In this document: positions 13,605 to 63,502 of the stretch, piece after piece
How positions within the stretch are numbered: the stretch's first letter is position 1
Layout of the letters: each line of letters starts with the position of its first letter
Source of the DNA: a virus
Strand: one strand, 5' to 3'
IMG/VR virus record: IMGVR_UViG_3300045988_126140
Span: 64,001 to 128,000 of that record
Length of the DNA: 64,000 nucleotides
Made by a program: the position numbers and the translations under genes
Notes under the pieces: generated by a model
What the model saw: only the letters and a program-made list of their open reading frames with translations
Told to the model about the DNA's origin: nothing
Databases searched by the model: none

Positions 13605-13800
13605 TCCATTTCTATATTTTGTAAGAGCAATAATTTGCCCCCATATAATTTGTATACTTTTTTGAACTACTCGCCAATAAATTGGCAAGATTCTTGGTCA
13701 ATATGCCTAACGGCACAAGTTTACCCAAGCTACCGAGGTAGTCCCGACCTCACTGAATACTAAAATTATAGTGCTAATTTTAGTAAGTTTTTACTTGCAT
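13605..13800 (-). ncRNA. putative omega RNA (reRNA) of TnpB
   Basis: The last codons of tnpB plus about 160 nt downstream are unusually GC-rich and full of stems (GGTCGGGACTACCTCGGTAGCTTGGG..., GCCAATTTATTGGC). In characterised TnpB systems the guide RNA is made from exactly this position. Confidence 0.45.
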
Positions 13801-14908
13801 TTATATCTCTATCGTGATGTGTATTACATTTAGGGCAAGTCCATTCTCTTAGTCCTAGATTTTTCACATCACTATTTTTATATCCACATTCAGAACATAA
13901 TTGAGAACTAGCATAGTTTGATGGTGCAATTACTATTTCTCTTCCATACCAATTAGCCTTATATTCTAACATTACTCTAAATTTATACCACGATACTTCT
14001 GATATAGCTCTTGCATTTTTATGATTTTTCACCATATTACCTATTCTTAAATCTTCTATTACTATTACTTGGTTTTCGTTTATTAGCTTTGTAGAGATTT
14101 TTTGTAGATAATCAGTTCTTTGATTTTTAATCTTTTCATGTAATTTCGCAACTTTAATTCTCGTTTTATTCCAATTACTAGAGCCATATTGCTTTCTCGA
14201 TAAATCTCTTTGTAATTTTTTCAATCTCTTAGTTTTATTTCTTAGCCACTTAGGATTTTTGAATTTAACTCCATCTGAACATATTGCAAAATCTTTTAGC
14301 CCAACATCTACTCCAACTTTCTTATTTATTTTAGGAAGCTCATTAATTTCTAGCTCACAAGTTAAAAATATGAAGTATTTCTCTGTGTTAGTTCTTCTTA
14401 TAGTTGCAGTTTTAATTTTACCTTCTACCTCTCTCGACTTAGCAAACCTCACTTTCCCTAGTTTTGGTAGTTGAATATACTTATTTAATACTTTAATATT
14501 TCCATTTACCATTTTTGTCTTGTAAGATTGTATTTCATTTTTCTTAGATTTAAATTTAGGTTTACCCCCTAAATGTTTATAATATCTACTGTATGCATTA
14601 TCTAAGTTTTCTACAGAAGATTGTAAAGCGATACTATCTACTTCTTTAAGAAAAGAATATTGTGATTTTAACTCTTTTACATCCTTAAAAGAGTTATTCT
14701 TGTTAAAAAACTCACCCTTCCAATTATTACAAGGAAGTTGCCCACATTGATACATTTCTTCTACTATATACCACATCTTATCTTTCTCTTGTTGTTTATC
14801 TAAAAAATAGTTAAATACAAATCTAGCACAACCAATAGTCTTATTAATGAGAATTGTCTGTTCTTTATTTGGATAAATTCTGAATTTATATGCTTTCATT
14901 TTTACCAT
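13766..14908 (-). CDS. tnpB: TnpB, RNA-guided RuvC-like nuclease (IS605 OrfB family)
   Basis: Starts [17 protein letters not shown]. RuvC motifs are present: [18 protein letters not shown] and [10 protein letters not shown]. Zinc-finger pairs CSECG...CPKC are present. The start was chosen at the ATG behind GGGGG; the track start at 15004 lies inside the IS end. Confidence 0.85.
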
Positions 14909-15006
14909 AATATCACCCCCTAAAGGAATATGTTTTATAATTAAACATATACTAAAAAAGCCGATTTGTCTCATGTTTAAAGACATGAGTGTTCTTGGTT
15001 GCATAT

Positions 15007-24801: not shown

Positions 24802-25921
24802 TTAATTAGCCAAGAAAATATGTCTCTTTTTCTTATTCCTATTTTTCTTTCTTATATCTCTTTCTATCAATTCTGCTAAATAATTACCATAAGTAATAGA
24901 AGAATATCTATCCTTACGATTTCTTCCTTTTTCTTTAAGAACTATATCACCATTCCCCATAGTTTCATAATCTAAGTTTATTGATTCAAATATAAAATTA
25001 GATGTTTGAATAAATGGTGCTATTTTATTAGCATGATATTCTGCGTCTTGATGATATTTTAAGTCTTTACTAAAATCTCCTCTTTTTTCATTTTCTTCTA
25101 TTAATAATCTTATTTTTTTACTACTAAAAGCATTTTTAAGATATACTGCACAATCATTATTTATTTTTTGATTCCCTTTAATTACATATATACAATTTAT
25201 ACCATTTTTTAAAGGTTGAAAATCTTTTGATTGCGTACTCATATCATAAATACCAAAAGGTTCGTAATGTTCATCAATATTTTCGTCATAAGATGATTTT
25301 TCCATCTCTTGTATTACTGCTATACCTAAACCACCACCATCTATAATGATTTTATCAGCTTTAAATTCTGTATATAATCTCTTAATTCTAGTGGCTTGTT
25401 TTTCAAATTTCATACCATTATGTGATTCCATATAAACAACTTCTCTAATAATATTATTTCCACTAGGAAGTAATCTCCATAAAGTAAAAATAGAGTTATC
25501 ATTTTTATTTGATTTGTTAGCTTTTGCCGTTGCTACGTCAACTGAAATTATTCTTATTTCATCTTTCTTTTTAGGCATTCGTTTTAATTTTTCTTTCTTT
25601 TTATCTGGATTCCTATAATCGTCGTCCGTTAATGGATAATAACAATTCTTTAAAACTCTTGCATTCAACATATCTGCTGTATTAAAGAAACAATCTCCAC
25701 TTTGTCCATGCCATATAGCACCATATTCCATATTAAATACAAATTCACCCATATCCTCTTTATCTTCTTCAATCTTATCTTTTAAGACAAGTTTATGGTC
25801 TAAAGATGCCAAATAAGGAATTGCACAAGCAAATGCTTTTCCATTTTCAAACATTCTATTAAATATGGTTGTGAATTTTTCATAACTCCAGTGAACTTTT
25901 AACCACGCACTAGAAAGATAT
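24802..25921 (-). CDS. terL: terminase large subunit, exon 2 (nuclease half)
   Basis: This is track ORF 24802..25854 extended upstream to the inferred 3' splice site. The joined sequence reads ...PLESNMEI|YLSSAWLKVHWSYEKF.... Confidence 0.7.
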
Positions 25922-26175
25922 CAATTTGTTATTAACTATAGGTTTTTTATCCTATACTCTGGAGGTTTCCCTCATTTTCATCGGTTAGTCAATTCTAACC
26001 CAGTTTAGCATATATTTTCATTCTCTAAATTCTGTATAATGAATGTAGGATACTCTTGGGATACTAATTTTAGTATGTAAAATAATTACGGCATTATATT
26101 CTGTGGAGGGTAATTATCCCTCAAACAGTTTCAGCCCCTATGCGTTACAATACTTATAGTTTTTAAACATATAAG

Positions 26176-27156
26176 TTATCTCGGTATTAGCTTATTTATA
26201 AAATAATCATTTAAAGTTTTAATTGTATTTTCATAATAAGGTATTCTTAACATATTTATATTATTACTTTTACAATAATTATTTTTAATTCCATCTTTAA
26301 TTATTTGGATTTTAAATCCTTCTTCTCCTCCAAATAATTCTACTGGCATAAAATGTTGTCTACCATCGTATTCAACAACTAAATTATAATTAGGAATATA
26401 AAAATCAAATCTTAGTACATCATTATATTTACAATCATTGAATATGTATTCTCTTTCAAATCCAATATTTTTACTTAATAAATATTCCAGAATTTCTTGT
26501 TCCCCTTTGCTAATTGTAGCTTTTGACATTTTGTCATATCCTTTTCTAGCCATACATTTGGGGCAAATTATTTCAATATTGTTTTTAATTTTATCTTTAA
26601 TGTGATAAAAATTTTGCTCATATTCTTTTCCACATTTACATTTTAATTTTAATTTTTCGCCTGGAATATATTCAGTAGACAATAATTCACTTTCACCAGT
26701 ACTTTCACATATAAGTTTTACGTCATGGAAACTACAATAATGTCCATTATTGTTTTCTATATTTCTTTGTTTTCTTATTTTTTCAGCACATTTAGGACAA
26801 GTTTTTGTTTTACTTTTTTTAAATAATTCCCATGTTGTTTCATAAGTTTCACCACACGTTCCACATTTAACTAATAGTGAAGTATATACATTTTTATATT
26901 CAGTTGAAAGTAATTTATTACCATAAGATTCAATTTCACTTCTAACTTTATCTATACTCACTTTGTTATTAGAACAAGTTTGACAATAATATCTTTTTTT
27001 ATTTTTAAAATCTTGAAAACTTCTTTCAAATACATCTCCACATTTACAACGAATTTTCAATTTTTGTTTGTTATTAATATACTCTTTAGTTAATAAGGTA
27101 CAACCTTTTGATTCTATATATTCCTTAACTTTATCATAATCATATCTAACTCCCAT
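26176..27156 (-). CDS. intron-encoded nuclease: three zinc-ribbon repeats plus a PD-(D/E)xK (Vsr/DUF559-like) C-terminal domain
   Basis: Three repeats of Y..x..L.(I/V)(K/R)C.CG..(F/Y)E....F.....C..C are present. The C-terminus reads RFDFYIPNYNLVVEYDGRQHF. The ORF lies wholly inside the intron. Confidence 0.6.
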   Translation of the reverse strand: MGVRYDYDKVKEYIESKGCTLLTKEYINNKQKLKIRCKCGDVFERSFQDFKNKKRYYCQTCSNNKVSIDKVRSEIESYGNKLLSTEYKNVYTSLLVKCGTCGETYETTWELFKKSKTKTCPKCAEKIRKQRNIENNNGHYCSFHDVKLICESTGESELLSTEYIPGEKLKLKCKCGKEYEQNFYHIKDKIKNNIEIICPKCMARKGYDKMSKATISKGEQEILEYLLSKNIGFEREYIFNDCKYNDVLRFDFYIPNYNLVVEYDGRQHFMPVELFGGEEGFKIQIIKDGIKNNYCKSNNINMLRIPYYENTIKTLNDYFINKLIPR

Positions 27157-27180
27157 AAATTCACCCCCTTTTTTATATTA

Positions 27181-27220
27181 TTGTATTAACATAACTCAAT
27201 GATTAATTACTTATAAATTA
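27181..27220 (-). promoter_or_regulatory. class II bipartite promoter-like motif (TAAGTAAT-N15-GTTAATA) inside the terL intron
   Basis: On the minus strand: TAATTTATAAGTAATTAATCATTGAGTTATGTTAATACAA, about 25 nt upstream of the RBS of the intron ORF. Confidence 0.5.
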
Positions 27221-27337
27221 TTAATTATTTTATAAACTTAGCCTTTCTTACCATGTATATCACTATACATTTGACCGATTTTACCCTATTTTAAATATAA
27301 GCACTTATACTTTACTTATATTGAGACATATCTTTTT

Positions 27338-27978
27338 ATCTCCATATTTGATTCTAATGGATAATCTTTATATTCGGGTTTTTCTAAAAACGGAGGTTTT
27401 CTTGGATTTGTTAAGAATTGTTTTAAAACTGAATTTATTACATCTAATTTGATAAGCCTAAATTCATCTGCAACCAATACATTCCCTCTCAAGCCTCTCG
27501 CTCCATCATTAGAAGCTATAGCTGTTATTACAGAACCATTTTTAAATATACATTTAACATTATCTTTATTATTTTGAACTTTTTTAATTTCTTTTGCTAA
27601 CGCAGGGTAATCCCTTCGTAAATCTTCAATCTTTTCGGTTATAATTAATCCTGCCTGGTCTTTGTTACCAGATGCAACTATTATTTTAGAACCTGGATAT
27701 AATATTGCTCTACAACATACAAATATCGCAGTTAGAAATGACTTACCGAGACCACGTGACGCAATAAAGCAGAAACTTGTGCATATATTCATCATATAAA
27801 GTAATATTTGTTGAAACAAATATAAATTAATTCCTAACCAATCCATACAAAATCTATGTGGATTTTTTCTAAAATATTCTGTCCATATTTTTACACCATC
27901 TAATAAATTTTCATATGAATCTTTTTTTAAGTTTTTTCTTTGTTTGCATTTTAATCTATTCTCCATATCCTTTTTCAT
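27338..27978 (-). CDS. terL: terminase large subunit, exon 1 (ATPase half; start uncertain, 27978 or 27966)
   Basis: Walker A-like SRGLGKSF and Walker B VLVADEF are present. The layout LGINLYLFQQILL... is typical of TerL N-termini. Confidence 0.75.
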
Positions 27979-28801
27979 CCTCCTCTGTATAAGGAGTTGA
28001 ATCATTATTTATTAACTTTTTAATAGGATTTAAGAAGTAACGATTTAACCACCATTTAATTCTATCCACATCATCGTATTCTTGGTGGACATCTGGAATA
28101 GGTTCATTTTTTTCTACTTTAGCAATTAATGTACCATAACTTAAATTATCGTCTTCACCATATTTGCTCATTTTAGATGGTAAAACATTTAGTTCTTCCA
28201 TACGTTTAGAAATTTGATTAGTTAAGTTTTCAAATGCTTTTTGGTCATTCTTAACTATAGCTCTTTCTCTTAAAACTTCTAACATACATATTGTTTTAAT
28301 TAAATTAACTTCTTGAATGGCTTTAGACGGATAATTATCTGTGTATTGTTCATATTTTCTTTGGAGTAATTCATACTCATCATCTTGAAATCCCTTACCC
28401 CAAAAGTTAACAATCTCACTTGAAGTAACTGTCTCTCCAGTAATAATATTAGTTACACCATCATAAGTAAGCATATTATCTAAAGATGTTAACCCTTTAA
28501 ATGCTTTATCTCTATTCATTATTCTAGTATAATTACCTAAAAAATTATTGCCATATTTCTCAACACATTTTAGATATGTTTCTTCGTCATAATACATATC
28601 TAAAACCATACATAAATGTATAAATGCTAATCTACGGTCGTTGTTATAATTTTTTAATAACTTTTTAAAATATTTATCAACTACTTCTTTACTCATGGGT
28701 AATTTCTTATCATGCTCATAAAGCATTGATTGTGTAGAGTAGAAATCTCTAACGGTAGGTTTAAATTTACCTGTAGCTGAACATTGTTTTGTGTCTGCCA
28801 T
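27956..28801 (-). CDS. terminase small subunit, putative
   Basis: A 281-aa ORF immediately upstream of terL and overlapping it. Assigned by position only. Confidence 0.45.
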   Translation of the reverse strand: MADTKQCSATGKFKPTVRDFYSTQSMLYEHDKKLPMSKEVVDKYFKKLLKNYNNDRRLAFIHLCMVLDMYYDEETYLKCVEKYGNNFLGNYTRIMNRDKAFKGLTSLDNMLTYDGVTNIITGETVTSSEIVNFWGKGFQDDEYELLQRKYEQYTDNYPSKAIQEVNLIKTICMLEVLRERAIVKNDQKAFENLTNQISKRMEELNVLPSKMSKYGEDDNLSYGTLIAKVEKNEPIPDVHQEYDDVDRIKWWLNRYFLNPIKKLINNDSTPYTEEDEKGYGE

Positions 28802-32590: not shown

Positions 32591-32630
32591 GTGTATTAAC
32601 ATTGATGGTAGATAAATTACCTATGAATTA
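32591..32630 (-). promoter_or_regulatory. class II bipartite promoter-like motif
   Basis: On the minus strand: TAATTCATAGGTAATTTATCTACCATCAATGTTAATACAC. Confidence 0.5.
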
Positions 32631-35575: not shown

Positions 35576-35667
35576 CATTATTTTTAATATATATAGTATT
35601 TAATTTAGTATTTAATAGTATTTAGAGTGCCTATATATGTTGATATCGCTTGTATTCAGACTATTAT

Positions 35668-35861
35668 ATATGAGTTTTAAAGGTTTTAATATGTGTTTTT
35701 AAGGAACAAATATGTTAAATTAAGTATTATTTCATTTATAAATATGTGTTTTTAAGGTTATTTTATTTCCTTAATTACTCATAATAATTTTAAATATGTT
35801 AAAATAAGGGACTATTAATATGAGATATTAAGGGTTATAATATAACTATGAGAAATTAAGG
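35668..35861 (+). repeat. iteron array upstream of rep (6-7 copies of about ATATGWGNTTTTAAGG)
   Basis: ATATGAGTTTTAAAGG, ATATGTGTTTTTAAGG (twice), ATATGTTAAATTAAG, ATATGTTAAAATAAGGG, ATATGAGATATTAAGGG and CTATGAGAAATTAAGG. They are preceded at 35593..35627 by three tandem AGTATTTAA units. Confidence 0.75.
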
Positions 35862-35870
35862 AGGTTTAAT

Positions 35871-36827
35871 ATGAGCAAAAATCAAATACTTATGAAAAAT
35901 AATACAATAGTTAGTGCTAGATATAACATATCTCTTATGCATAATAATATATTTATTTTCATATTGTATAAACTTCAGAAAGCTAAGTCTGGTAATGCAT
36001 ATTGTTATATAAGCAAACAAGAATTTCAAAATCTTATTTCAAATAAAACACAGAAAACAGTTCCAGGTATTAAAAAAGTATTAGATAATATGCTAGATGA
36101 AAAAATATATTTTAGAGAAGATGGTGAGTGGAGCTGTAAATATAGTATTATAGCTGGGTATGAATATAATAAAAAAGAAGATTTATTTAAAATAGTTGTC
36201 ATTGATAAAGTTTATCATCTTCTTATGAATTACAAAGCTTATACACCTATTAATATGAAAATATTTTTAACTTTAAAATCAATATATAGCCAAAGATTAT
36301 ATGACCTTCTTAGATTATGGAGTAATACAAAAGAAAATATAACATATGAACTAGATGAATTAAAAGATTTGTTAATGCTAAATAACAAATATAATTTGTA
36401 TGCTGATTTTAAAAGAAATGTTCTTCAACGAGCTAAAAAAGAATTAAATAATACTGGAATGTTTGAATTATCATATACCGAAAATAAAAAAGGACGAAGT
36501 GTAAAGTCTATAACATTTCATGTGAAAGATTTAGATAAAAGAGTATATTTTAAAAAGAAACAAACTGAACAAATTTCGCCATTGTCATACATTTCTAATA
36601 AGGATTTAATATCAAATGATTGTATATCATCTTTTCAAAAAGATTTTGAACTAATAGATTTCACATACGAAGATATGAATCAAGCTTTTATTGAATCAAT
36701 TAATATAACATTATCTAAATTTAATGTAGATAAAATAGATTATAATGTATATCCTTACTTTAAAGCTGTGTTAAATAATAAAATTAAGTATTATACTGAC
36801 TTATTTATAAAGACAAGTATTTTTTAA
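35871..36827 (+). CDS. rep: plasmid-type replication initiator, Rep_3 family
   Basis: The N-terminus NNTIVSARYNISLMHNNIFIFILYKL and the later LKSIYSQRLYDLLRLWSN...ITYELDELKDLLML..KYNLYADFKRNVLQRAKKELN follow the Rep_3 pattern as I remember it. Iterons lie upstream. Confidence 0.75.
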   Translation: MSKNQILMKNNTIVSARYNISLMHNNIFIFILYKLQKAKSGNAYCYISKQEFQNLISNKTQKTVPGIKKVLDNMLDEKIYFREDGEWSCKYSIIAGYEYNKKEDLFKIVVIDKVYHLLMNYKAYTPINMKIFLTLKSIYSQRLYDLLRLWSNTKENITYELDELKDLLMLNNKYNLYADFKRNVLQRAKKELNNTGMFELSYTENKKGRSVKSITFHVKDLDKRVYFKKKQTEQISPLSYISNKDLISNDCISSFQKDFELIDFTYEDMNQAFIESINITLSKFNVDKIDYNVYPYFKAVLNNKIKYYTDLFIKTSIF

Positions 36828-36966
36828 TCAATTTATCGACAAAATATATTTTCCATGTTATCATAATATAGTACACTCTCATAAGAATTGCAAATATCAC
36901 GTATAACATAGAATTTTCTTACAATTTTAATTAAATTATTACCTTTTGGAGATAAAATGTAATAAT

Positions 36967-36992
36967 CAGCCCTTTTTAGGGCTTTTTCTTTT
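36967..36992 (+). terminator. hairpin terminator (T runs on both sides)
   Basis: CAGCCCTTTTTAGGGCTTTTTCTTTT lies between the convergent rep gene and the minus-strand genes. Confidence 0.6.
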
Positions 36993-37010
36993 GTTTTTTA
37001 TAAAAATAAG

Positions 37011-37080
37011 CAATTTTTCTTAATTTTTAATGTTTTTTATGCATTTTTACTCATTTTTTACTAAAATTTTAGCATTTTAT
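37011..37080. other. phased T-tracts (predicted intrinsically curved DNA)
   Basis: T4-6 runs start at about 37014, 37024, 37033, 37044, 37054, 37067 and 37075, close to a 10-bp period. Confidence 0.7.
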
Positions 37081-37271
37081 TCGTATTTTTTCTTAACAAT
37101 CTCACCAAATTCAGGAGCTTTCATTAAAATTTTCTCACGTATTGACCTATCTTTATAAATTTCCATCAATGATTCTAATTCTTTCAATGAGTTTTCTCTG
37201 ATTACTCCACCAATTATTTCTCTTCCATCTCTTGATTTCATTTCCCATTCTACTTCCCAAATTTCTCTCAT
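37077..37271 (-). CDS. hypothetical protein
   Basis: A 64-aa ORF with an RBS. Confidence 0.5.
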   Translation of the reverse strand: MREIWEVEWEMKSRDGREIIGGVIRENSLKELESLMEIYKDRSIREKILMKAPEFGEIVKKKYE

Positions 37272-37283
37272 ACCATCGACCTC

Positions 37284-37466
37284 CTAAAATAATTTTTTAA
37301 CTATATTATATTCACATCCATATTGTGGATTTTTATTGCATTTTTCTTTTAACTCTTCAATTTCTTCCTTGACTTGTTCTTTATTTTTAAGTTTTGTTTC
37401 CTTTTTATAAACTGTTTCACAACAATCATCTATATCATATATATATCCGTACAATTCATATCTCAT
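37284..37466 (-). CDS. hypothetical protein
   Basis: A 60-aa ORF with an RBS. Confidence 0.5.
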   Translation of the reverse strand: MRYELYGYIYDIDDCCETVYKKETKLKNKEQVKEEIEELKEKCNKNPQYGCEYNIVKKLF

Positions 37467-37478
37467 AATTGCCCCTCC

Positions 37479-38597
37479 TTATTTCTTTTTACCATACTTT
37501 TCACATATTTTAAGTACAGTCTCTCTATCAATATAGAAAGTTTGTATTTCTGTACCATATTCCTCATAGTCAAACACTCTCATATTCCCTGCTCCTCTTA
37601 ATAAATGTAAATATCCATAGTTAATTATCATATTAGACCTAATTTCATCTTTACATTTACCACCTATAACGATATTTATATTTTGTTTAGTTATATTAGG
37701 TAATATATCTTTAGAAGGTAATTGGGTAGTTAGTATTAAAAATACCCCTGCCCCTGCACCTCTACTAGCTATTAAAGCTAACATATTGTGAAAATCTTTA
37801 TTCTTCATATAAGAAGATAACTCTTCTATCACTATAAATCTAATAGGCATTTTTTTAAACTTTCTATATTGCCATATATCAGTACAATTTCTATAAGTAA
37901 ACTGTTCATATCTTTTATCTATATCTTGTATAGCATCAAATAATATATCTTCAGCTTCATCTCTGTTTTCTGTATAATGAATTACGTTCTTACAGTTTCT
38001 AAATTCAAATAAATCTACTCTCTTTTCATTGATTAAATCTAATACAACATCACATTTTCTTTTCATTACTAATTGAGATATAATAACTCTTAAACAATTA
38101 GATTTACCACATCTAGTAGCACCTGCTAAATACATATGTGCATTAGAAGGTTCGCTAAAATCAATATATCTAATGCTACAATCTTCTAAATTAATCCCAA
38201 TAGGTATTTTATATCCTTTAGCCTTATGTTTTTCTAAATCAAAGTCAGCACATACTATCTCTTCCTTTTTAATTCTTAATTGAATATAATATCCATTCTT
38301 TTTAAAACTAACATCTTCTTTTTCTTTATTTAATAAATGACAAAACTTATTCTTATTATTACTAAAATCATCTATAGTCATTCCTACAGGTATTATAAAT
38401 TCATATATCTTATAATTTTCATCCTCCCATTTCTTTCTTAACTTAGGTATATCTCCAGAAACATTCTTCATATTGATATTATTAAAGAAATCAGTAAAAT
38501 CAATATGTTTAATATTAAATACATCTAAAACTGATTTACATAATAATGTTATTGTATCCCAAATAGTATTTGTTAAAGGTTCTATTACATTACTCAT
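37479..38597 (-). CDS. FtsK/SpoIIIE-family DNA translocase-like ATPase
   Basis: Walker A is LAGATRCGKSN and Walker B is RFIVIEELS. The size and layout resemble the small FtsK-like proteins of Gram-positive plasmids and ICEs. Confidence 0.7.
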   Translation of the reverse strand: MSNVIEPLTNTIWDTITLLCKSVLDVFNIKHIDFTDFFNNINMKNVSGDIPKLRKKWEDENYKIYEFIIPVGMTIDDFSNNKNKFCHLLNKEKEDVSFKKNGYYIQLRIKKEEIVCADFDLEKHKAKGYKIPIGINLEDCSIRYIDFSEPSNAHMYLAGATRCGKSNCLRVIISQLVMKRKCDVVLDLINEKRVDLFEFRNCKNVIHYTENRDEAEDILFDAIQDIDKRYEQFTYRNCTDIWQYRKFKKMPIRFIVIEELSSYMKNKDFHNMLALIASRGAGAGVFLILTTQLPSKDILPNITKQNINIVIGGKCKDEIRSNMIINYGYLHLLRGAGNMRVFDYEEYGTEIQTFYIDRETVLKICEKYGKKK

Positions 38598-38716
38598 ATT
38601 ATCATCTCCTTTTACTTAACTATATGCAAGTGTGTAGTAAATGTTTCCTAAATATTAAAAAAAATATTTTAGTAACATTATTTAAATATATACATATACT
38701 ATATTGAGGTGATAAT

Positions 38717-39310
38717 ATGACGGAAAGAGATTTAAATGTATTAAACTTTATTAATTTAGTTGCTATGTGTAGAACAGAACATATAAGAAACTTATTTTTT
38801 ACAGGATTAACTAATACCACTTGGGATAGAAGAGCTAATAAATTAGTAGAATATAAGCAATTAAAACGATTTAGAAGTGGAATATATAATAGAGAATATA
38901 TTTATTATATTGAAAATAAACCTAATGAAAGATTACTTAGGCATGATATGTATATAACTGAATTAATATATAATTTATTATTACTAGGTGTAGAAATAAT
39001 ATACGTAGATAGAAACGTTCAATTAGGTAATGTTATAGCAGATGGTTATATTATAATTAGATATAAAAAAGACAATACTATAATTAAGAAAGGCTTATTA
39101 ATAGAAGTTCAATTGCATGGTAGATTATCAGATTGTATAGATAAATACACAGATATTAATCCCATTAAAGAATATGTTATAGAACAAGGTATGCAGACTC
39201 TTCCTTCTCTACTTATTATAAGCGACTTACAGGGTAAGATTAGAAATAAAATTCTTAAAACTATGTGTGTAAACTGTAACTTAGAGTGTTTAGACAAGTG
39301 TATATTATAA
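38717..39310 (+). CDS. replication-relaxation family protein
   Basis: The N-terminus MTERDLNVLNFINLVAMCRTEHIRNLFF...RRANKLVEYKQLKRF matches the Replic_Relax pattern as I remember it. It is divergent from the FtsK-like gene. Confidence 0.55.
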   Translation: MTERDLNVLNFINLVAMCRTEHIRNLFFTGLTNTTWDRRANKLVEYKQLKRFRSGIYNREYIYYIENKPNERLLRHDMYITELIYNLLLLGVEIIYVDRNVQLGNVIADGYIIIRYKKDNTIIKKGLLIEVQLHGRLSDCIDKYTDINPIKEYVIEQGMQTLPSLLIISDLQGKIRNKILKTMCVNCNLECLDKCIL

Positions 39311-39319
39311 TGTAAAATT

Positions 39320-39364
39320 GAGTGTGTGATACAACTATTGCTTGTACTACACACTCTTTTATTT
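39320..39364 (+). terminator. intrinsic terminator
   Basis: GAGTGTGTGATACAACTATTGCTTGTACTACACACTC followed by TTTTATTT. Confidence 0.7.
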
Positions 39365-39920
39365 GGTATTTCAATGGTTTGATACGGTAAACTAAGGAGT
39401 TTATATAGATAAATTAATACGTAGTGGGGAGTATATTATGTCCAATTAACACCGTATTTTCCCATTTATTTCCAATATATTAAATATACTATTAAATTCC
39501 CATTAAATCAAGTACTAATTTATAAACGTAAAATAACATATTTATGATACCATTTCCCGAGAATAAGCACAACATAGAAACATTTAATTTTAATACTTTT
39601 AAATTAGGCAAAATGAAGTATAACAAAAACGTATTAATTTCCTAGTATTCTTGATTTGCAAATATGGCTATGTTGCAAATATAGGAGCTTGTAGGAATTG
39701 CTAAAAATCTAATTCGGTATTTTTTACGACATGTAGTTGGTAAACTACTACACAGAATAAAATTTTTGTCAAGCCCCTCCGAATATGATACCACCCCCTA
39801 GATGTTGAAATATCAACATTTCTTACCCTTTGAAAAAAAATTCCTTCTCCAAAAAGTGTGATTAAGTATTAATTAATCGTACATTCTTAATTTTTTAAAG
39901 TGGTTGACTTGTCCAGAATT

Positions 39921-39984
39921 CTAGTTGTCTACAAGCATTTTGCTAGTTATCCACAAGTATTTTGCTAGTTATCCACAAGCTGTT
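39921..39984 (+). repeat. three tandem 22-bp repeats, each carrying a DnaA box
   Basis: The repeat is CTAGTT(G/A)TC(T/C)ACAAG(C/T)ATTTTG. Perfect TTATCCACA boxes lie at 39947..39955 and 39969..39977. A variant, TTGTCTACA, lies at 39925..39933. A fourth perfect box lies at 40134..40142. Confidence 0.8.
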
Positions 39985-40081
39985 AATATGTATAAATATA
40001 TATACGAAGGCAAGTATTACCAATACTTACAATTACATTTACAACTACATCTCAAGCTAACAACCTATAAGTCTATATAAT

Positions 40082-41315
40082 CTAGTAATATCAACGCTTT
40101 CATACACTTATACACTTTTTTTCTTAATCTAAGTTATCCACAAGTAAAATTTTTCTAATTTTTTCATTTTACATTTTTTACCATTTATTCAATTTCCCCT
40201 AATAATCTAAAGTAATTTGTCTATTTTCCTTTATTTTCCTAAAGCGTCTACACTAAAATGTTCTACGGTTTACCTTTATTACCCAATACTATACAACCGT
40301 TGCAATAACTGTATCCTATACCTATAGTGGGTATATTGTAAAGCGTGAAACGGTTGAAACTGCTACATTCTTCTGTTTTCTTCTATTTGTGTATACCTAT
40401 GTATGGTATTCAATCCTAGTTATATCAACACTTCTATTGTTTTCCTTTGCATTTTCCTAAAGCTTACAACCGTTGATAATGCTAGATAGTTAATAAATAT
40501 ACCTATGATAATTAAGATAATAAATCATAATGTTAATTTACATTAATTAATTAAACTATTCTCTTCTGTTCTCTTTACTATATAAACCATGCATATATTT
40601 TGTCGAATACTCTAAAGCTAGTAATATCAACAACTACAGTATTTTATAATAACTTTACAATATAAAACAATCTTTATATTTTCCCTAATTAAATAAAGCT
40701 AATCCTTGATTTACCTTAATATTTTAAAGGAGATATTATCATTCTGCTTTATTTAATTAAGTTAAACTTATTAATTAATACCAACTTTATTTATTAAACT
40801 TTAAAATCAATTTTAAAATGGAGTATTCCATAAAAATAATTTTGTACTATATACTTTTTTATAGCTTTACTAAAATAAGTATATAGTACTATTCACTTTA
40901 ATAAAATTCGTGACCCTATTTTCTACTATCAATAAGTAAAGTATTCGACATAATGCACTTTACTTATATAAAGTATTCGACACTTGCTTTCACTATATCA
41001 ATTATTTTTTATGTAAGAATTATCTAATATGATACAAATATATTTTAATATATAAATTATTTTTTATGTAAAGAATTAATTATTTAGAGGGCGTAAACTT
41101 TAATAAATAAAGTGACCATATTTTTTACTATCACTTTTTAAAGTAAAACTTGTCGAACACTTTAATAATTGACTGTGGAGTCTATCAATTGCCTTGTTTT
41201 TTAAAGTGTTAATTGTCGGACTATCATATAAATTTATTTTTATGTAAAAATTTAATTTTATAATAAGAAAATCCAACACAACTAAAATATAGCTTAAACT
41301 GTTGATATTACTAAC
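40082..41315. repeat. nested repeat region (candidate origin/partition locus)
   Basis: CTAGTAATATCAAC-type sites lie at 40082, 40416, 40618 and, inverted, at 41301. GTATTCGACA lies at 40941 and 40973 and, inverted, at 40601. TATTTTTATGTAA occurs three times between 41012 and 41258. TTTTCCTAAAGC..ACAACCGTTG occurs twice. Two degenerate units of about 200 bp lie at 40899-41095 and 41098-41260. Confidence 0.7.
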
Positions 41316-41385
41316 TTGTAGCGTTTTTACTTATCATTTTTCTATCTATATATTTTTTAAGAAAAAAATAAATTTCAAAAAATTG

Positions 41386-41415
41386 TTGACAAATTAAACT
41401 AGAACGTGATATTAT
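41386..41415 (+). promoter_or_regulatory. sigma-A-type promoter, first of two in front of the plus-strand early array
   Basis: TTGACA, an 18-nt spacer, then TATTAT with an upstream TG. Confidence 0.6.
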
Positions 41416-41467
41416 ATAAACATAAACAACAACAAAAAAATAATTAATAAAAAATTAAAAAAAGTTG

Positions 41468-41496
41468 TTGACAAAATAGACGACAAGTGATAACAT
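41468..41496 (+). promoter_or_regulatory. sigma-A-type promoter
   Basis: TTGACA, a 17-nt spacer, then TAACAT. The 15-mer lies just upstream at 41437..41451. Confidence 0.55.
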
Positions 41497-41580
41497 TAAA
41501 GTATAAGTATTAGACAAGGGAGAACGCCCAACCGTTCATAAAGTAACAATAAAAATAATTAATAAATAGGAGTGGTAAAT

Positions 41581-52930: not shown

Positions 52931-53713
52931 ATGATGGGGAAAAATATTAATAGAATAGGAGAGAGAAATATAAATACATTTGGAAGTGAAATGGTTATAG
53001 TAGAATATAGAATGAATAGAGATATCGACGTTTATTTTCCAGAATATGACTGGACTTTTAAAAATGCGAGATATGAAACTTTTAAAAAAGGAAACATTAA
53101 ATGTCCTTATGATAGAAGTATATATGGTGTTGGTTACATTGGTGAGGGTAATTATAAGGTAAGTGAAAATCGCAAACTAACTAAAGTTTATAGCACTTGG
53201 CAAAGCATGCTACAAAGATGTTATAGTAATAAATTTCATAAGAAACAACCTACTTATATTGGTTGTGATGTTTCTGAAGAATGGCATAATTTTCAAAACT
53301 TTGCCAAATGGTATTATGAAAATTATTATGAGGTAGAAGGAGAAAAAATGCATTTGGATAAAGATATTTTATATAAACATAATAAGATATACTCTCCTAG
53401 GACTTGCATATTTGTACCTCAAACTATTAATGGTTTATTTATTAAAAGGGATAATAATAGAGGTAAATCAGTTATAGGGACAACGCCTCGTAAAAATGGT
53501 AAATATCAAGTAAAATGTTGTTTAATAAATCCAGAAACAGGTAAGTCTAAATATGAATATTTAGGGATTTATGACACACAAGAAAAAGGGTTTAAAATAT
53601 ATAAGTATTATAAAGAGAAAAATATTAAACAAGTTGCTGACTATTACAAAGATTTAATACCATACAAATTATATCAAGCTTTATATGAGTATGTTGTTGA
53701 AATAGATGATTGA
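52931..53713 (+). CDS. homing-endonuclease-like protein, paralog 1 of 5 (HNH-like core plus AP2-like C-terminal domain)
   Basis: The family signature is G(E/K)...N.FGSEM.I..Y, then Y.TW..ML.RCY...(F/S)..K.PTY..C.V..EWHNFQNF..WY, then LDKDIL.KHNKIYSP.TC.FVPQ.IN, then GKYQV.C.L.NP.TGKS...YLG.YD....AF..YK.YKE. Confidence 0.55.
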   Translation: MMGKNINRIGERNINTFGSEMVIVEYRMNRDIDVYFPEYDWTFKNARYETFKKGNIKCPYDRSIYGVGYIGEGNYKVSENRKLTKVYSTWQSMLQRCYSNKFHKKQPTYIGCDVSEEWHNFQNFAKWYYENYYEVEGEKMHLDKDILYKHNKIYSPRTCIFVPQTINGLFIKRDNNRGKSVIGTTPRKNGKYQVKCCLINPETGKSKYEYLGIYDTQEKGFKIYKYYKEKNIKQVADYYKDLIPYKLYQALYEYVVEIDD

Positions 53714-55085: not shown

Positions 55086-55988
55086 ATGATGGAAAAAGTT
55101 AATAATATGGAAAGATTAATAAATAATTATATAGCATACTTGAAGGATATAAAAAACTTATCACCTAAAAGTATTAAATCATATATTCCAGTAGTAAAGG
55201 AAATGATTGAGTATTGTGGATTTAAAAGAATAGATGATATACAAAATTCTACTATAATCCAATTACAAAATTGGTTAAACAAAAAAAGAAATGAAGGATT
55301 ATCTAATCAAAGTCTTAACAGAAGGATAGCTAGTTGTAAATCATTTTATGGTTATCTATGTGCATTTAGGATTATTGATTTTAATGCTAGTAAGGAACTT
55401 AAACAATTAAGAATTGAATCTAAAGGTAAAATAGGAAACACAGGACAAGTTGACAAAATAAGAACTTATTTAGAATCTGAATATAATAGAAAACCTAATT
55501 ATATGAATATGAGAAATAGATTGATTGTTGAAGTCATGCTTAATTGTGCTTTAAGAAATTCAGAGCTTAGACAATTAAATATAGATAGTATCAATCCCAA
55601 TACTGGAGAATTTACAGTTATCCAAAAAGGCGGGACTAGGAAATCTTGCGTGTTATCTAGTAAAACATTACAACTATATAATGAATACATGATAGAACGC
55701 AACAGAATCCCTTCTAAGGATAATTCTCTATTTCTTAGTAGTTATAAGAGTAGAATAAGTATTGGTGGCTTAGAAAAGCTTATACACAAGATAACAGAGG
55801 TTACAGGACAACAGTTAAATCCCCACGATTTACGTCATATTTCAGCTACAAAATACGTGGAAGCTGGATTTAGTTGTGATGAGGTCGCAAAGTTACTAGG
55901 GCACTCAAGTAGTAATACAACCTTCAGATTTTATTATCACCAAGATAATGACAATAAAAAGAAAATGGTTGAAAATACATGGGATTAA
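55086..55988 (+). CDS. tyrosine recombinase (XerC/D / phage integrase family)
   Basis: NCALRNSELRQL (Arg box) and HDLRHISATKYVEAGFSCDEVAKLLGHSSSNTTFRFYYH (H-x-x-R, H, Y) are present. Confidence 0.8.
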   Translation: MMEKVNNMERLINNYIAYLKDIKNLSPKSIKSYIPVVKEMIEYCGFKRIDDIQNSTIIQLQNWLNKKRNEGLSNQSLNRRIASCKSFYGYLCAFRIIDFNASKELKQLRIESKGKIGNTGQVDKIRTYLESEYNRKPNYMNMRNRLIVEVMLNCALRNSELRQLNIDSINPNTGEFTVIQKGGTRKSCVLSSKTLQLYNEYMIERNRIPSKDNSLFLSSYKSRISIGGLEKLIHKITEVTGQQLNPHDLRHISATKYVEAGFSCDEVAKLLGHSSSNTTFRFYYHQDNDNKKKMVENTWD

Positions 55989-56131: not shown

Positions 56132-56944
56132 ATGGGAAGAAAATCAATAAATAGAACAGGGGAGAAAGGAATTAATAATTTTGGAAGTGAGATGATAATT
56201 GTTAATTCTTATATGAAATTCAATGATAAATATAAAAGAAATTATACTTATGTAGACGTTTATTTCCCAGAGTATAATTGGACTTTTAAAGGTGTAAGAT
56301 ATGAGAGTTTCAAAAATGGTAATGTCAAATGCCCATATGAGAGAACTGTGTTTGGAATAGGTTATGTTGGCGAAGGAAAGTATAAGGTAAGTGAAAATGG
56401 CAAAGACACTAAGAGTTATAATACTTGGCGTAATATGTTGCAAAGATGTTATAATGAAAAATGTCAAGAGAAAAATCCAACTTATAAAGGTTGTACTGTA
56501 TGTGATGAGTGGCATAATTTTCAGAACTTTGCGAAATGGTATGAAGACAATTATTATGAGATAGAAGGTGAGAGAATACATTTGGACAAAGATATTTTAT
56601 GTAAAGGCAATAAAATATATACTCCAGAAACTTGTGTTTTTGTACCACAGACAATTAATATGTTATTTACTAAAAGGCAAAATGATAGAGGGGAATCAGT
56701 TATTGGAACAAGCTATCATAAAAGAGATAAAAAATATCAAGCATATTGTAGTTTAATTAATCCTAAAACTGGTAAATCTAAAGATAAATACTTGGGATAT
56801 TATGATACAGAAATAGAAGCATTTGAGATATACAAATATTATAAAGAACGTAATATTAAACAAGTAGCTGATTATTATAGAGATTTAATACCAGAAAGAT
56901 TATACATGGCATTGTATAATTATGAAGTTGAAATTACAGACTAA
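56132..56944 (+). CDS. homing-endonuclease-like protein, paralog 2 of 5
   Basis: It carries the same signature as 52931..53713. Confidence 0.55.
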   Translation: MGRKSINRTGEKGINNFGSEMIIVNSYMKFNDKYKRNYTYVDVYFPEYNWTFKGVRYESFKNGNVKCPYERTVFGIGYVGEGKYKVSENGKDTKSYNTWRNMLQRCYNEKCQEKNPTYKGCTVCDEWHNFQNFAKWYEDNYYEIEGERIHLDKDILCKGNKIYTPETCVFVPQTINMLFTKRQNDRGESVIGTSYHKRDKKYQAYCSLINPKTGKSKDKYLGYYDTEIEAFEIYKYYKERNIKQVADYYRDLIPERLYMALYNYEVEITD

Positions 56945-57973: not shown

Positions 57974-58846
57974 ATGAAAAAAATGTGTGATAAAAAAATT
58001 AAAATGGACAGAATGGAAAATAGAGTAAACGATTTAATTAATGAAATAGGTGAAAAAAATATAAATGAAGAAGTGATAAAAGATTTTGCTATAAAAAATT
58101 TAAAGACAATTAATAGAAGTAGTTTCTACGATGGATTTAGAATTTTAAAAGAAGTATTAGATACAAAGGGAATTAAATACGATTTAAAAGAAGATGAATT
58201 AATGGAAAAATGTTTATATTTTGACGAATCTAAATACTTCACAAAAACTCAAATATTAGATATAATCAATTCACTTATAAATGCACAAGACAAATTATTA
58301 ATATACATGATATTTAATAAAGTATTAGGTAAGAAATTCAAAGACCTATTAGAAATTAAGGTTTCTGACGTAGCCGAAGACTATAGTTATATAAATGTAA
58401 ATGGAAATAAAATACTATGCGACGATATAATGAAAGAGTTAGTTAAAGACACAATAGAACAAGAAGTATATGTTAATACAACAAGAAGTAGAAACGTACT
58501 TTATTATGATTTAAATATGAATAGTGAATATTTATTCAAGACATTATGTAATAGATATACCAATAATGGTTTAGAACCAATGAAACGTAGTAATTTAAGT
58601 GGAAAATTAACTGTTTTAACAAAAGAATTACAACATGGAGGATTAAATGTTACCTTAACAGCTACAGGAATATATCAGTCTGGAATCATGTATGACATGT
58701 TTGTATTGCAAGTATTAGATAATATTATATGGACTATACAAAATACAAAGAGCTATCTTGATATAAATGGATATAATATGAATGCCAATGAATTAACCTA
58801 TAAATATCACCATTTATATTATGGAACGAACTCTTCAAGAAATTAG
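57974..58846 (+). CDS. hypothetical protein, possibly a degenerate integrase-fold protein
   Basis: A 290-aa ORF. Its layout recalls tyrosine recombinases (..LLIYMIFNKVLGKKFKDLLEIKVSDV..), but the catalytic R/H/Y residues are not evident. Confidence 0.5.
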   Translation: MKKMCDKKIKMDRMENRVNDLINEIGEKNINEEVIKDFAIKNLKTINRSSFYDGFRILKEVLDTKGIKYDLKEDELMEKCLYFDESKYFTKTQILDIINSLINAQDKLLIYMIFNKVLGKKFKDLLEIKVSDVAEDYSYINVNGNKILCDDIMKELVKDTIEQEVYVNTTRSRNVLYYDLNMNSEYLFKTLCNRYTNNGLEPMKRSNLSGKLTVLTKELQHGGLNVTLTATGIYQSGIMYDMFVLQVLDNIIWTIQNTKSYLDINGYNMNANELTYKYHHLYYGTNSSRN

Positions 58847-59061: not shown

Positions 59062-59838
59062 ATGGGAAATAAAATAGATAGAACAGGAGAAATAAATTGT
59101 AATACGTTTGGAAGTGAAATGATAATTACGGAATATAGAAGTGCAAAAGACATTGATGTTTATTTTTCAGAATATAACTGGACTTTTAAAAATGTTCGAT
59201 ATAGTATTTTTAAAAATGGTAATATGAAATGTCCGTATGAAAGAAGACATTATAAAATTGGTTATTTAGGTGAAGGTGAGTATAAAATGAGTGAAAATCG
59301 TAAACATACCAAAGTTTATAATACTTGGCATCATATGTTAGAAAGATGTTATGATAAAAAATTTCAAGAGAAACACCCCACTTACAAAGATTGTAAAATA
59401 TCTGAAGAATGGCATAACTTTCAGAATTTTGGCAATTGGTATAATGAAAATTATTATGAGGTAGAAGGCGAGATTATGTGTTTAGATAAAGACATTCTTG
59501 TTAAGCATAACAAGATATATTCACCAGATACTTGTATATTTGTACCTCAAATAATTAATACTTTATTTGTTAAAAGAGATAATGATAGAGGTGAATCATG
59601 TATAGGTACAAGTCTTAAAGATGGAAAATATCAAGTAAGTTGTAATTTAATTAATCCTAAAACTGGAAAATCAAAAAGCGAATATTTAGGAATTTATGAT
59701 ACAGAACTAGAAGCATTTGAGGTTTATAAGTATTATAAAGAAAAGAATATAAAACAAGTAGCTGATTATTATAAAGAACAAATACCATATAAACTTTATA
59801 ACGCTTTATACAAGTATAAAGTTGAAATAAATGATTAA
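59062..59838 (+). CDS. homing-endonuclease-like protein, paralog 3 of 5
   Basis: It carries the same signature as 52931..53713. Confidence 0.55.
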   Translation: MGNKIDRTGEINCNTFGSEMIITEYRSAKDIDVYFSEYNWTFKNVRYSIFKNGNMKCPYERRHYKIGYLGEGEYKMSENRKHTKVYNTWHHMLERCYDKKFQEKHPTYKDCKISEEWHNFQNFGNWYNENYYEVEGEIMCLDKDILVKHNKIYSPDTCIFVPQIINTLFVKRDNDRGESCIGTSLKDGKYQVSCNLINPKTGKSKSEYLGIYDTELEAFEVYKYYKEKNIKQVADYYKEQIPYKLYNALYKYKVEIND

Positions 59839-61090: not shown

Positions 61091-61867
61091 ATGGGGAAAG
61101 TAATAGATAGAACAGGAGAAAAGAATTATAATACATTTGGAAGTAAAATGATAATAGCGAATTATAATGGATGTATGGATATTGATATATATTTCCCAAA
61201 GTATGATTGGACTTTTAAAAATGCAAAATATCAACATTTTAAAAATGGAGATATAAAATGTCCTTATGATAGAAGTATATATGGTGTTGGTTACATTGGT
61301 GAGGGTAATTATAAGGTAAGTGAAAATCGCAAACTAACTAAAGTTTATAGCACTTGGCAAAGCATGTTACAAAGATGTTATTCTGAAAAATTTCAAGAGA
61401 AACATCCTACATATATTACTTGTGAAGCATCTGAAGAATGGCATAATTTTCAAAACTTTGCTAAATGGTACAATGAGAATTACTATGAAATTGAAGGCGA
61501 AAGAATGGATTTAGATAAAGATATTTTAGTAAAGCACAATAAAATATATTCTCCAGAGACTTGTATATTTGTACCACAAACTATTAACAAATTATTTGTT
61601 AGATGCGATAGAAGTAGAGGTGAATCAGTTATAGGTACAACTCCTGTAAATGGTAAATATCAAGTAAAATGTTATTTACTTAATCCTAAAACAGGAAAAT
61701 CTAAAAATGAATATTTAGGCTATTATGATAGTCAAGAAAAAGCATTTGAGGTATACAAATACTATAAAGAAAAGAATATAAAAGAAGTCGCTGATTATTT
61801 TAAAGATGAAATTCCAGTTAAACTTTATAACGCTTTATATTCATATGAAGTTGAAATTACAGATTAA
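61091..61867 (+). CDS. homing-endonuclease-like protein, paralog 4 of 5
   Basis: It carries the same signature. It shares a 126-bp tract with paralog 1 that differs at one position. Confidence 0.55.
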   Translation: MGKVIDRTGEKNYNTFGSKMIIANYNGCMDIDIYFPKYDWTFKNAKYQHFKNGDIKCPYDRSIYGVGYIGEGNYKVSENRKLTKVYSTWQSMLQRCYSEKFQEKHPTYITCEASEEWHNFQNFAKWYNENYYEIEGERMDLDKDILVKHNKIYSPETCIFVPQTINKLFVRCDRSRGESVIGTTPVNGKYQVKCYLLNPKTGKSKNEYLGYYDSQEKAFEVYKYYKEKNIKEVADYFKDEIPVKLYNALYSYEVEITD

Positions 61868-62719: not shown

Positions 62720-63502
62720 ATGAGTGAAAAAACAATAGGTAGAACAGGTGAAACAGCTTATAATAAATTTGGAAGCGAGATGATAATTATTGATTATAAA
62801 GGATGTATGGACGTAGATGTTTATTTTCCAGAATATAATTGGACCTTTAAAAATGCACATTATAGTAGTTTTAAAAAAGGAAATATTAAATGCCCTTATG
62901 AGAGGAGATATTATGAAGTTGGATATTTAGGAGAAGGAAAATATAAAGTAAGTGAAAATGGTAAACATACCAAAGTTTACCAAACATGGCACGATATGTT
63001 GAGAAGATGCTATGACGAAAAAAGTCTTAAAAGAAATCCTACTTATATAGGCTGTAAGGTAGATAAAGAGTTTCATAATTTTCAAGAATATGGAGAATGG
63101 AGCGAAGATAACTATTATGAAATAAAAGAAGAAAAGATGTGTCTTGACAAAGACATATTAGTTAAACATAATAAAATCTACTCACCAGAAACCTGTATAT
63201 TTGTACCGCAAAGAATAAATACTTTATTTACAAAAAGAGATAGTAAAAGAGGAAATAATCCAATAGGTGTTTCAGATTATATAAATGGTAAGTATGTAGC
63301 ACAATGTCATATAATTAATCCCGAAACAGGAAAATCAAAATATGAATGTTTAGGTGTTTATGAAACTCAACTTAAAGCTTTTGAGGTGTATAAAGAATTT
63401 AAAGAGAAAAATATCAGACAAGTAGCTGACTATTACTTTGGTTTAATCCCTAACAAACTATACAATACTTTATATAATTATGAAGTTGAGATAACAGATT
63501 AA
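62720..63502 (+). CDS. homing-endonuclease-like protein, paralog 5 of 5
   Basis: It carries the same signature and is the most diverged copy. Confidence 0.55.
   Translation: MSEKTIGRTGETAYNKFGSEMIIIDYKGCMDVDVYFPEYNWTFKNAHYSSFKKGNIKCPYERRYYEVGYLGEGKYKVSENGKHTKVYQTWHDMLRRCYDEKSLKRNPTYIGCKVDKEFHNFQEYGEWSEDNYYEIKEEKMCLDKDILVKHNKIYSPETCIFVPQRINTLFTKRDSKRGNNPIGVSDYINGKYVAQCHIINPETGKSKYECLGVYETQLKAFEVYKEFKEKNIRQVADYYFGLIPNKLYNTLYNYEVEITD

Follow-up and report, generated by a model that had tools for sequence, protein, structure and literature searches.

We analyzed a 64,000-nucleotide (nt) stretch of viral DNA (hereafter, the window), positions 64,001 to 128,000 of IMG/VR record IMGVR_UViG_3300045988_126140, which is part of a 133,562-bp metagenomic scaffold with the sample label ZELL14-1 (ERZ28662998). 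Our subject is a plasmid-type replicon embedded in this tailed-phage genome: a Rep_3 initiator gene with an iteron array and an AT-rich block, beside which lie genes for an FtsK/SpoIIIE-family ATPase and a distant Replic_Relax protein. The window has a GC content of ~26%, and both coding strand and GC skew switch at ~35 to 41 kb (coordinates are those of the window). Left of this switch, every gene runs leftward and belongs to the phage late set (tape measure, portal, terminase, and tail proteins); to its right, genes run rightward. The replicon sits at this late/early switch, among neighboring genes that encode the SPbeta-type domains YonG_N, YonV_C, and MrpR_C_cat. A megablast search with the 33- to 42-kb region against phage and plasmid collections gave no match, and an Rfam scan of the window detected no RNA family.

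A Rep_3 initiator preceded by iterons and an AT-rich block

The gene at 35871..36827 (+) encodes a 318-amino-acid (aa) replication initiator of the Rep_3 (RepE/RepA) type, as an earlier sequence-only reading had proposed. Both winged-helix domains exceeded the curated Pfam cut-offs (Rep3_N [WH1], E 1.3e-17; Rep3_C [WH2], E 7.9e-20). The solved structures that the protein matched were RepE-type initiators (E about 1e-6), with low identity to RepE. Directly upstream we observed an array of the 16-mer ATATGNNNWWWTAAGG at 35668..35861 (+). The expected six or seven direct iterons were present as seven, accompanied by one inverted copy (35769-35784). Allowing at most one mismatch, the 16-mer occurs 11 times in the 64-kb window, versus 4.4 occurrences expected, and 8 of the 11 fall within the 194 bp directly upstream of rep. 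The iterons are spaced 21 to 32 bp apart, the last one overlaps the ribosome-binding site (RBS) of rep, and a TATAAT hexamer lies between the last two (35836-35841). The array is kept in 16 relatives and across a mosaic boundary.

The AT-rich block (35593..35624, +) is a candidate DNA-unwinding element. Tandem Repeats Finder (TRF) reported it with a period of 10, three copies, and a score of 46, and it lies at the same offset in 16 related contigs. The sequence-only reading had described a tandem 11-mer block here; the block is real, but it is short, and its three repeats, with the core TAGTATTTA, are units of 10 to 12 nt rather than a strict 11-mer array. In a sister lineage whose Rep is 45% identical, a TAGTATTT repeat lies just upstream of the rep gene. 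The conserved origin block starts at ~35528, and the sequence further left differs completely among relatives, marking a mosaic junction. On the other side of rep, a terminator-like hairpin (36968..36983, +), the sole terminator-like site in 34.9 to 41.7 kb, separates the convergent rep and FtsK operons. Judged from sequence, the initiator, iterons, and AT-rich block together have the layout of a theta-plasmid origin, in agreement with the earlier reading.

The named relatives of this Rep, at 37 to 47% identity, come from Paraclostridium, Romboutsia, and Terrisporobacter, and Peptostreptococcaceae plasmids and phage-plasmids carry Rep proteins at 40 to 47% identity. Rep relatives in the genome collection all reside on contigs of at most 138 kb and never on chromosome-sized ones. 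A 124.7-kb contig from a T. mayombei isolate has the same YonJ/sigma/YonV/Rep_3 order, and a second metagenomic lineage (133 to 140 kb) carries a Rep_3 gene (45% identity) at the same place. Because Rep_3 occupies the same position in three lineages whose Rep proteins are just 45 to 47% identical, it is a long-standing resident of the late/early switch.

Closed relatives, a partition gene, and the recombinases

We found 16 IMG/VR contigs with a Rep at least 95% identical to that of the window. They measure 113 to 140 kb (most of them 133 to 140 kb), carry rep at varying distances from their ends, and in no case showed host flanking sequence. All 16 contain the 35.5- to 39.3-kb block. We rejected an assembly chimera, since at least 16 independent contigs share this arrangement. 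Two of the relatives assemble as closed circles. The first and last 40 nt of contig 131721 (136,794 bp) are identical, and its two ends align side by side on the window, at 32638 and 33234. Contig 136492 (IMGVR_UViG_3300045988_136492; 136,683 bp) has a 99-nt terminal overlap and breaks elsewhere than contig 131721; seven loci, which agreed throughout, were joined to rebuild 101 kb of it. When IMG/VR was scanned with 14-mers for the rest of the genome, most of the contigs returned were unrelated.

We then surveyed the large open reading frames (ORFs) of contig 136492 by tblastn against SPbeta and a C. difficile plasmid, and the unmatched ones by Pfam. The survey yielded an actin-like ALP_N protein, a DnaB-like helicase, a primase-like protein, DHH and AAA_24 proteins, a ligase, NrdD, RuvC, and lysins. 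With the lysins of this relative, the portal, terminase, tape measure, and tail genes make up a full set of tailed-phage genes that shares a replicon with the plasmid genes. In the window's own scaffold, an actin-like gene lies ~4 kb past the end of the window, together with a gene for an 82-aa partner, and matches Pfam ALP_N (E 1e-12) and phrog_691, annotated "partition protein" (E 5e-36). The 6.6 kb to the left of the window hold tail genes only.

The sequence-only reading had named an XerC/D-like tyrosine recombinase as the only recombinase in the window. That gene is indeed present at 55086..55988 (+), but it is not alone: the window also holds a TnpB transposase gene (13766-15004) and an MrpR-like repressor of the SPbeta master repressor type, which has a recombinase fold (57974..58846, +; PF22823 MrpR_C_cat, phrog_10004, phrog_5830, and synteny). 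The XerC/D-like protein has Phage_integrase and SAM-like N-terminal domains. Its best scores are against the XerA, XerC, and XerD models (Pfam and NCBIfam searches; E 1e-35 to 1e-40), under the model cut-offs. In C. difficile phages, the recombinase beside the MrpR-like gene is syntenic with it, and SPbeta has the same order, yopP-yopQ-yopR. From its sequence, a role in resolving dimers is plausible. Because its counterparts stand beside the MrpR-like repressor in SPbeta-type genomes, it may instead belong to a lysogeny-control module. Across contig 136492, the window, and sequence L231, the XerC/D-like and MrpR-like genes were the only recombinase-fold genes found besides transposases. The large ORFs of contig 136492 included neither a serine recombinase nor any integrase other than the XerC/D-like gene; none of the ORFs matched yokA by tblastn, and none of the large unmatched ORFs had a Resolvase or Recombinase Pfam domain.

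Could the element be an ordinary integrating prophage, in which Rep_3 and the iterons serve only a theta phase of lytic replication and the circles are induced or packaged, permuted DNA? The type relative SPbeta does integrate (its annotation includes attachment sites and an integrase, yokA), the window has a tyrosine recombinase, and the IMG/VR contigs may come from either bulk metagenomes or viromes. Against this stand the lack of a SprA-like serine recombinase, or of any integrase beyond the XerC/D-like gene, in the sequences screened; the occurrence of a counterpart of that gene in plasmidial C. difficile phages as well; and the 16 contigs, none with a host flank. The partition actin points the same way, as do the presence of the same Rep clade on closed phage-plasmids and the confinement of Rep relatives in genomes to contigs below chromosome size. 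We therefore regard integration as unlikely.

The alternative, that the prophage is extrachromosomal, had been suggested by the sequence-only reading. It gains support from the closed relatives of ~137 kb without host DNA, from the actin-like partition gene, and from a nearly complete relative in which no other integrase was found. Related C. difficile phages are plasmidial (PMC5786514), and among named Rep proteins the closest is encoded by a closed P. sordellii phage-plasmid. Several points weigh on the other side. The evidence for closure comes from the relatives' contigs 131721 and 136492 rather than from the window's own contig, and circularly permuted virion DNA, or DNA in the course of replication, would likewise assemble as a circle. 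The function of Rep_3 could be lytic replication, either alone or alongside plasmid maintenance. Integration by the XerC/D-like recombinase is conceivable in principle, and ~3 kb of contig 136492, along with its small ORFs, lay outside the recombinase screen. Finally, in departure from the classic layout, 4 kb separate the iterons from the DnaA-box cluster described below.

Given a plasmid-type origin and a plasmid-partition gene, a free circular plasmid is the most likely state, rather than a chromosomal insertion. We consider it likely that the window is the central part of a circular siphophage of ~134 to 137 kb, SPbeta/phiCD211-like, that is kept during lysogeny as a low-copy plasmid. Its host would be an uncultured low-GC Firmicute of the human gut, probably a member of the Peptostreptococcaceae. 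We conclude that the phage-plasmid interpretation is well supported by comparative evidence and, for this host, probable.

An FtsK-family ATPase and a distant Replic_Relax protein

Next to the replicon, the gene at 37479..38597 (-) encodes a 372-aa P-loop ATPase of the FtsK/SpoIIIE family. The assignment made from sequence alone was borne out: the protein scored 31.6 bits against Pfam FtsK_SpoIIIE (cut-off, 24) and matched phrog_1358 (E 2e-55), its Walker A (GATRCGKS) and Walker B (FIVIEE) motifs are both intact, and its structure matches are the FtsK and EccC motors. It lacks an N-terminal membrane segment. The first 130 residues contain no hydrophobic 19-mer, and peak hydropathy (1.74) falls in the ATPase core, whereas N-terminal hydrophobic segments do occur in the Bacillus phage versions. 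Downstream in the same operon are two small ORFs of 64 and 60 aa (37077..37466, -); both are kept in relatives, and neither matched a family.

Divergent from the ATPase gene, the gene at 38717..39310 (+) encodes a 197-aa protein that the sequence-only reading had called a replication-relaxation protein. The profile searches suggested there succeeded directly for Rep_3 and FtsK_SpoIIIE, both over their cut-offs, but not for Replic_Relax: a direct Pfam scan of the 197-aa protein gave no match even at E 10, and BLASTP against two phage Replic_Relax proteins was marginal. The evidence is instead transitive. A profile of the protein's family retrieved 178 relatives, and 72 of the 97 full-length ones match PF13814, the MOBC-type Replic_Relax family. 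Comparison of the family by hhalign with Pfam-positive Replic_Relax proteins of Bacillus and Geobacillus phages gave a probability of 97.7% (E 1.9e-12). A deeper profile is needed for this result; a shallow alignment of 10 sequences gave 0.9%. Among the 97 sequences, E130 is invariant, and D109, H76, and K143 are at least 90% conserved. The protein has an N-terminal winged helix-turn-helix (HTH) and a PD-(D/E)XK-like core (D109, E130, and K143). Replic_Relax proteins are HTH plus PD-(D/E)XK nucleases (PMC3424549), and the residues conserved here fit. The predicted helix-then-strands secondary structure matches the expected pattern, but the AlphaFold model is of low confidence (pLDDT 53). Hence, the protein reads as a distant Replic_Relax member, with a remote homology visible through profiles only.

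The pair had been taken as typical of Gram-positive conjugative or mobilizable plasmids rather than of phages. This does not hold. The ATPase matches 226 phage records, and a Pfam-positive Replic_Relax gene directly follows the FtsK gene in temperate phages of Geobacillus and in a Wbetavirus that has a serine recombinase gene as well. Three more relatives of the 197-aa protein adjoin FtsK genes, one of them adjoining an actin-like gene as well. FtsK/Replic_Relax pairs have also been described next to the rep and par genes of plasmid prophages (PMC11526630; PMC9658697). Sequence comparison thus portrays the pair as a linked two-gene accessory module that recurs in Firmicute temperate phages and plasmids. 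Because both sister lineages have Rep_3 and lack the pair, it appears to be an accessory insertion in this lineage only.

Might the whole 35.5- to 39.3-kb block then be a small foreign plasmid or integrative mobilizable element (IME), recently inserted as a passenger? The mosaic junction at its left edge, the lack of the pair in two sister lineages, and the switch of strand and GC skew at this place would fit. However, only the FtsK/Replic_Relax pair looks inserted, the block is present in 16 of 16 close relatives, and Rep_3 holds the same switch position in three lineages despite the divergence of their Rep proteins. We find a passenger origin of the block hardly credible.

The gene-free region and the question of mobilization

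A gene-free stretch of 2.2 kb follows the Replic_Relax gene (39310-41572). Repeat and box scans revealed within it a cluster of 22-nt repeats (CTAGTTATCCACAAGCATTTTG; 39921..40142, +), a candidate site for DnaA or for Replic_Relax/FtsK. The repeats hold three of the window's four perfect TTATCCACA DnaA boxes (39947, 39969, and 40134), plus one near-match. Relatives have two to five DnaA boxes at the same position, and sister lineages without the FtsK pair have none. We rejected the idea that DnaA boxes are a general companion of Replic_Relax genes, as they were absent from the other contexts examined. To judge from their sequence, the 22-nt repeats may bind DnaA or the HTH of the Replic_Relax protein.

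Strong rightward sigma-70-type promoters lie at ~41386 and ~41468. Upstream of these early promoters, between 40601 and 41172, we noted four AAGTATTCGACA-like 12-mers, two in each orientation. The gene-free region also contains two copies of ATTTTCCTAAAGC (40232 and 40452). Both kinds of repeat may be operators for the MrpR-like repressor.

What does the pair do? Its role is most likely sequence-directed DNA processing or translocation that aids maintenance of the episome; mobilization is less likely. If the pair were a mobilization module, a MOBC-type relaxase and a TcpA-like coupling ATPase would allow the episome to be moved by the type IV secretion system (T4SS) of a co-resident conjugative element, with the 22-nt repeats or the 119-bp divergent intergenic region as candidate origin of transfer (oriT) for the relaxase to nick or bind, and the phage would gain a capsid-independent means of spread. 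PF13814 is listed as the MobC relaxase family in the CONJscan typing of streptococcal IMEs, and FtsK-like TcpA proteins serve as coupling proteins in Firmicutes (PMC5357655); because of these two precedents, such a role is possible. MOBC relaxases are related to restriction endonucleases (PMC6499999). Replic_Relax has a PD-(D/E)XK plus HTH architecture (PMC3424549), and D109, E130, and K143 are conserved here. The FtsK/Replic_Relax linkage is conserved in three arrangements, and acquisition of mob and oriT genes has been reported for phage-plasmids (PMC11652158).

Several observations argue against mobilization. We saw no T4SS genes in the window or in the surveyed relative, and the ATPase lacks the N-terminal membrane segments of the Bacillus phage versions. 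Since both a T4SS and a membrane anchor are missing, conjugative spread is speculative. The same pair occurs in small temperate phages that have a serine recombinase (such as a Wbetavirus) and no known transfer role. The 197-aa protein fails a direct Pfam match, and its likeness to MOBC relaxases is indirect, running through the PF13814 family. Taken together, mobilization by a co-resident element seems improbable to us. We hold it very doubtful, too, that the pair gives capsid-independent movement more broadly, whether by mobilization through a helper pore via the 22-nt TTATCCACA-containing repeats or by pumping of the episome into the forespore. If it did, the same widespread two-gene module would act so in many Firmicute temperate phages.

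Other features of the window and its relatives

The gene for the terminase large subunit is split. ORFs 27316-28005 and 24802-25854 map to contiguous parts of SPbeta yonF, and between these halves lies a 1.4-kb insertion (~25922-27336) with an HNH-type endonuclease ORF (26176-27156). In the relatives L091 and L070 the terminase gene is uninterrupted and the insertion is absent; Rfam detected no group I intron.

A second set of HNH endonucleases, paralogues of ~260 aa that match phrog_953 (E 1e-60), is represented by at least five copies in the window (52931-53713, 56132-56944, 59062-59838, 61091-61867, and 62720-63502), with pairwise nucleotide identities of 69 to 81%; another lies at L231:20032-20808. 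The family is scattered through each related genome, and one query retrieved 47 loci in about 20 contigs. The 14-mer AAAATTACCTATGA (at most one mismatch) occurs seven times in the window, versus 0.23 occurrences expected: at 32613, 35145, 35434, and 35558 on the plus strand and at 15761, 55996, and 58876 on the minus strand. It always lies in short intergenic gaps, facing the next gene. Several copies precede HNH paralogues or small ORFs by 50 to 170 nt, and the mosaic junction left of the origin has one. The 14-mer may be a phage-specific promoter or a cassette boundary.

The TnpB gene (13766-15004, -) lies inside the tail-gene arm and encodes an IS605-family protein (OrfB_IS605 plus a Cas12f-like TNB domain); copies 91 to 92% identical occur on other contigs of 144 to 150 kb. 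Contig 136492 encodes a Gad1 anti-Gabija protein (L261:2724-3704; Pfam E 4e-55), an additional YonV-like copy, and an ISL3 transposase, and its NrdD gene is divided between two ORFs (L261:3836-5113 and L261:5434-6396). Two independent IMG/VR contigs, L059 (140,471 bp) and L070 (133,124 bp), end at most 10 nt apart in the same sequence; their last 50 nt map to ~45.87 to 47.15 kb of the window, just past the antirepressor-gene region. This common end may reflect a repeat that interrupts assembly or a physical terminus of the genome.

Discussion

How might the replicon work? By analogy with F RepE, pSC101 RepA, R6K pi, and pPS10, Rep monomers would attach to the direct iterons and melt the AT-rich TAGTATTTA repeats beside them. 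Loading of a replicative helicase would follow; the phage has its own genes for a DnaB-like helicase and a primase-like protein. Binding of Rep at the inverted iteron and at the two iterons flanking the TATAAT hexamer and the RBS would autorepress rep, and handcuffing (pairing) of iterons would limit copy number. The actin-like (ParM/Alp7A-type) protein and the product of its small downstream gene would partition the copies, the XerC/D-like recombinase may resolve multimers, and the MrpR-like repressor would hold lysogeny.

Big SPbeta-like plasmid phages have so far been described in C. difficile, and our interpretation extends their range to uncultured Firmicutes of the human gut. The maintenance replicon of this clade would be an identifiable Rep_3-iteron unit of less than 1.4 kb, which is directly testable and a possible vector backbone for poorly tractable gut clostridia. 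One Rep_3 clade serves unrelated Peptostreptococcaceae phage-plasmids of 34 kb and 135 kb, a concrete case of replicon exchange. FtsK/Replic_Relax is a common, functionally uncharacterized module of phages and plasmids, and lineages with and without it can be compared here.

The closest described systems are big C. difficile Siphoviridae phages, which are plasmidial, that is, circular and extrachromosomal, and have a parM-like gene (PMC5786514). The group of phiCD5763, phiCD2955, phiCD211, and phiCDIF1296T resembles the window's phage in its ~130-kb genome, two-arm layout, and actin-like ParM-type gene. Homologues at 25 to 47% aa identity include the portal, terminase, tape measure, YonG, a YonJ-like phosphoesterase, a LuxR/sigma-like regulator, and the recombinase and MrpR-like pair. 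A local tblastn search against a closed 132-kb circular C. difficile "plasmid" found a colinear late arm, the LuxR/sigma-like regulator, and the recombinase/MrpR-like pair. That plasmid has two additional tyrosine integrase genes near its lysis module, which were not found in the present clade. Closed circular C. difficile records of 127 to 136 kb have the portal in common with the window and carry ParM at the late/early switch, where the present phage instead has Rep_3 and iterons, its actin-like gene lying ~30 kb further on. One C. difficile record that we examined has no annotated Rep_3 or FtsK-family gene and gave no tblastn match to the Rep, FtsK, or Replic_Relax protein of the window.

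SPbeta (Spbetavirus) is similar to the window's phage in size and overall gene order, in YonF (35 to 50% identity), YonG, YonJ, YonV (41%), and a YoqD-like protein, and in the order of a yopP-like recombinase and a yopR/MrpR-like repressor. SPbeta integrates via SprA/SprB, for which we found no counterpart here. Conversely, the annotation of SPbeta lists no gene for a Rep_3, FtsK-family, or actin-like partition protein, and tblastn searches of SPbeta with Rep and FtsK from the window gave no match.

Temperate phages and plasmid prophages of Bacillus and Geobacillus (Wbetavirus McSteamy, PT9.1, and RBClin15) have adjacent FtsK-family and Replic_Relax genes, as does the window. In RBClin15, a repA-like gene is described downstream of this operon, with a parABS system nearby (PMC11526630). 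The Bacillus/Geobacillus operon differs from the present pair in three respects: its genes are co-directional, whereas here they are divergent; its ATPase has N-terminal hydrophobic segments that are lacking here; and the Replic_Relax protein here is below Pfam detection.

As for the replicon itself, the Rep_3 theta replicons of F (RepE), pSC101 (RepA), R6K (pi), and pPS10 (RepA) likewise combine a WH1/WH2 initiator with direct iterons adjoining rep, a partial iteron in inverted orientation near the promoter, and AT-rich repeats to one side. Unlike in these plasmids, the DnaA boxes here lie 4 kb outside the origin, and the 135-kb phage brings its own helicase and primase. P. sordellii pRSJ16_1 (NZ_CP014149.1, 1-34354) is a closed 34-kb circle with a Rep_3 of the same clade (43% identity). 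It is filed as a plasmid and typed as non-mobilizable, and a record of the same size is also in IMG/VR. Its gene content is that of a complete siphophage (terminase, portal, protease, tail, holin, and amidase) plus ParA and Rep_3, i.e., a phage-plasmid. It differs from the window's phage in being an unrelated small HK97-type siphophage that has ParA in place of an actin-like partition protein and lacks the FtsK/Replic_Relax pair. The kind of element described here is already known, namely phage-plasmids and specifically big SPbeta-like plasmidial siphophages, and its lifestyle is familiar from related phages; the novelty lies in the lineage and its Rep_3 replicon.

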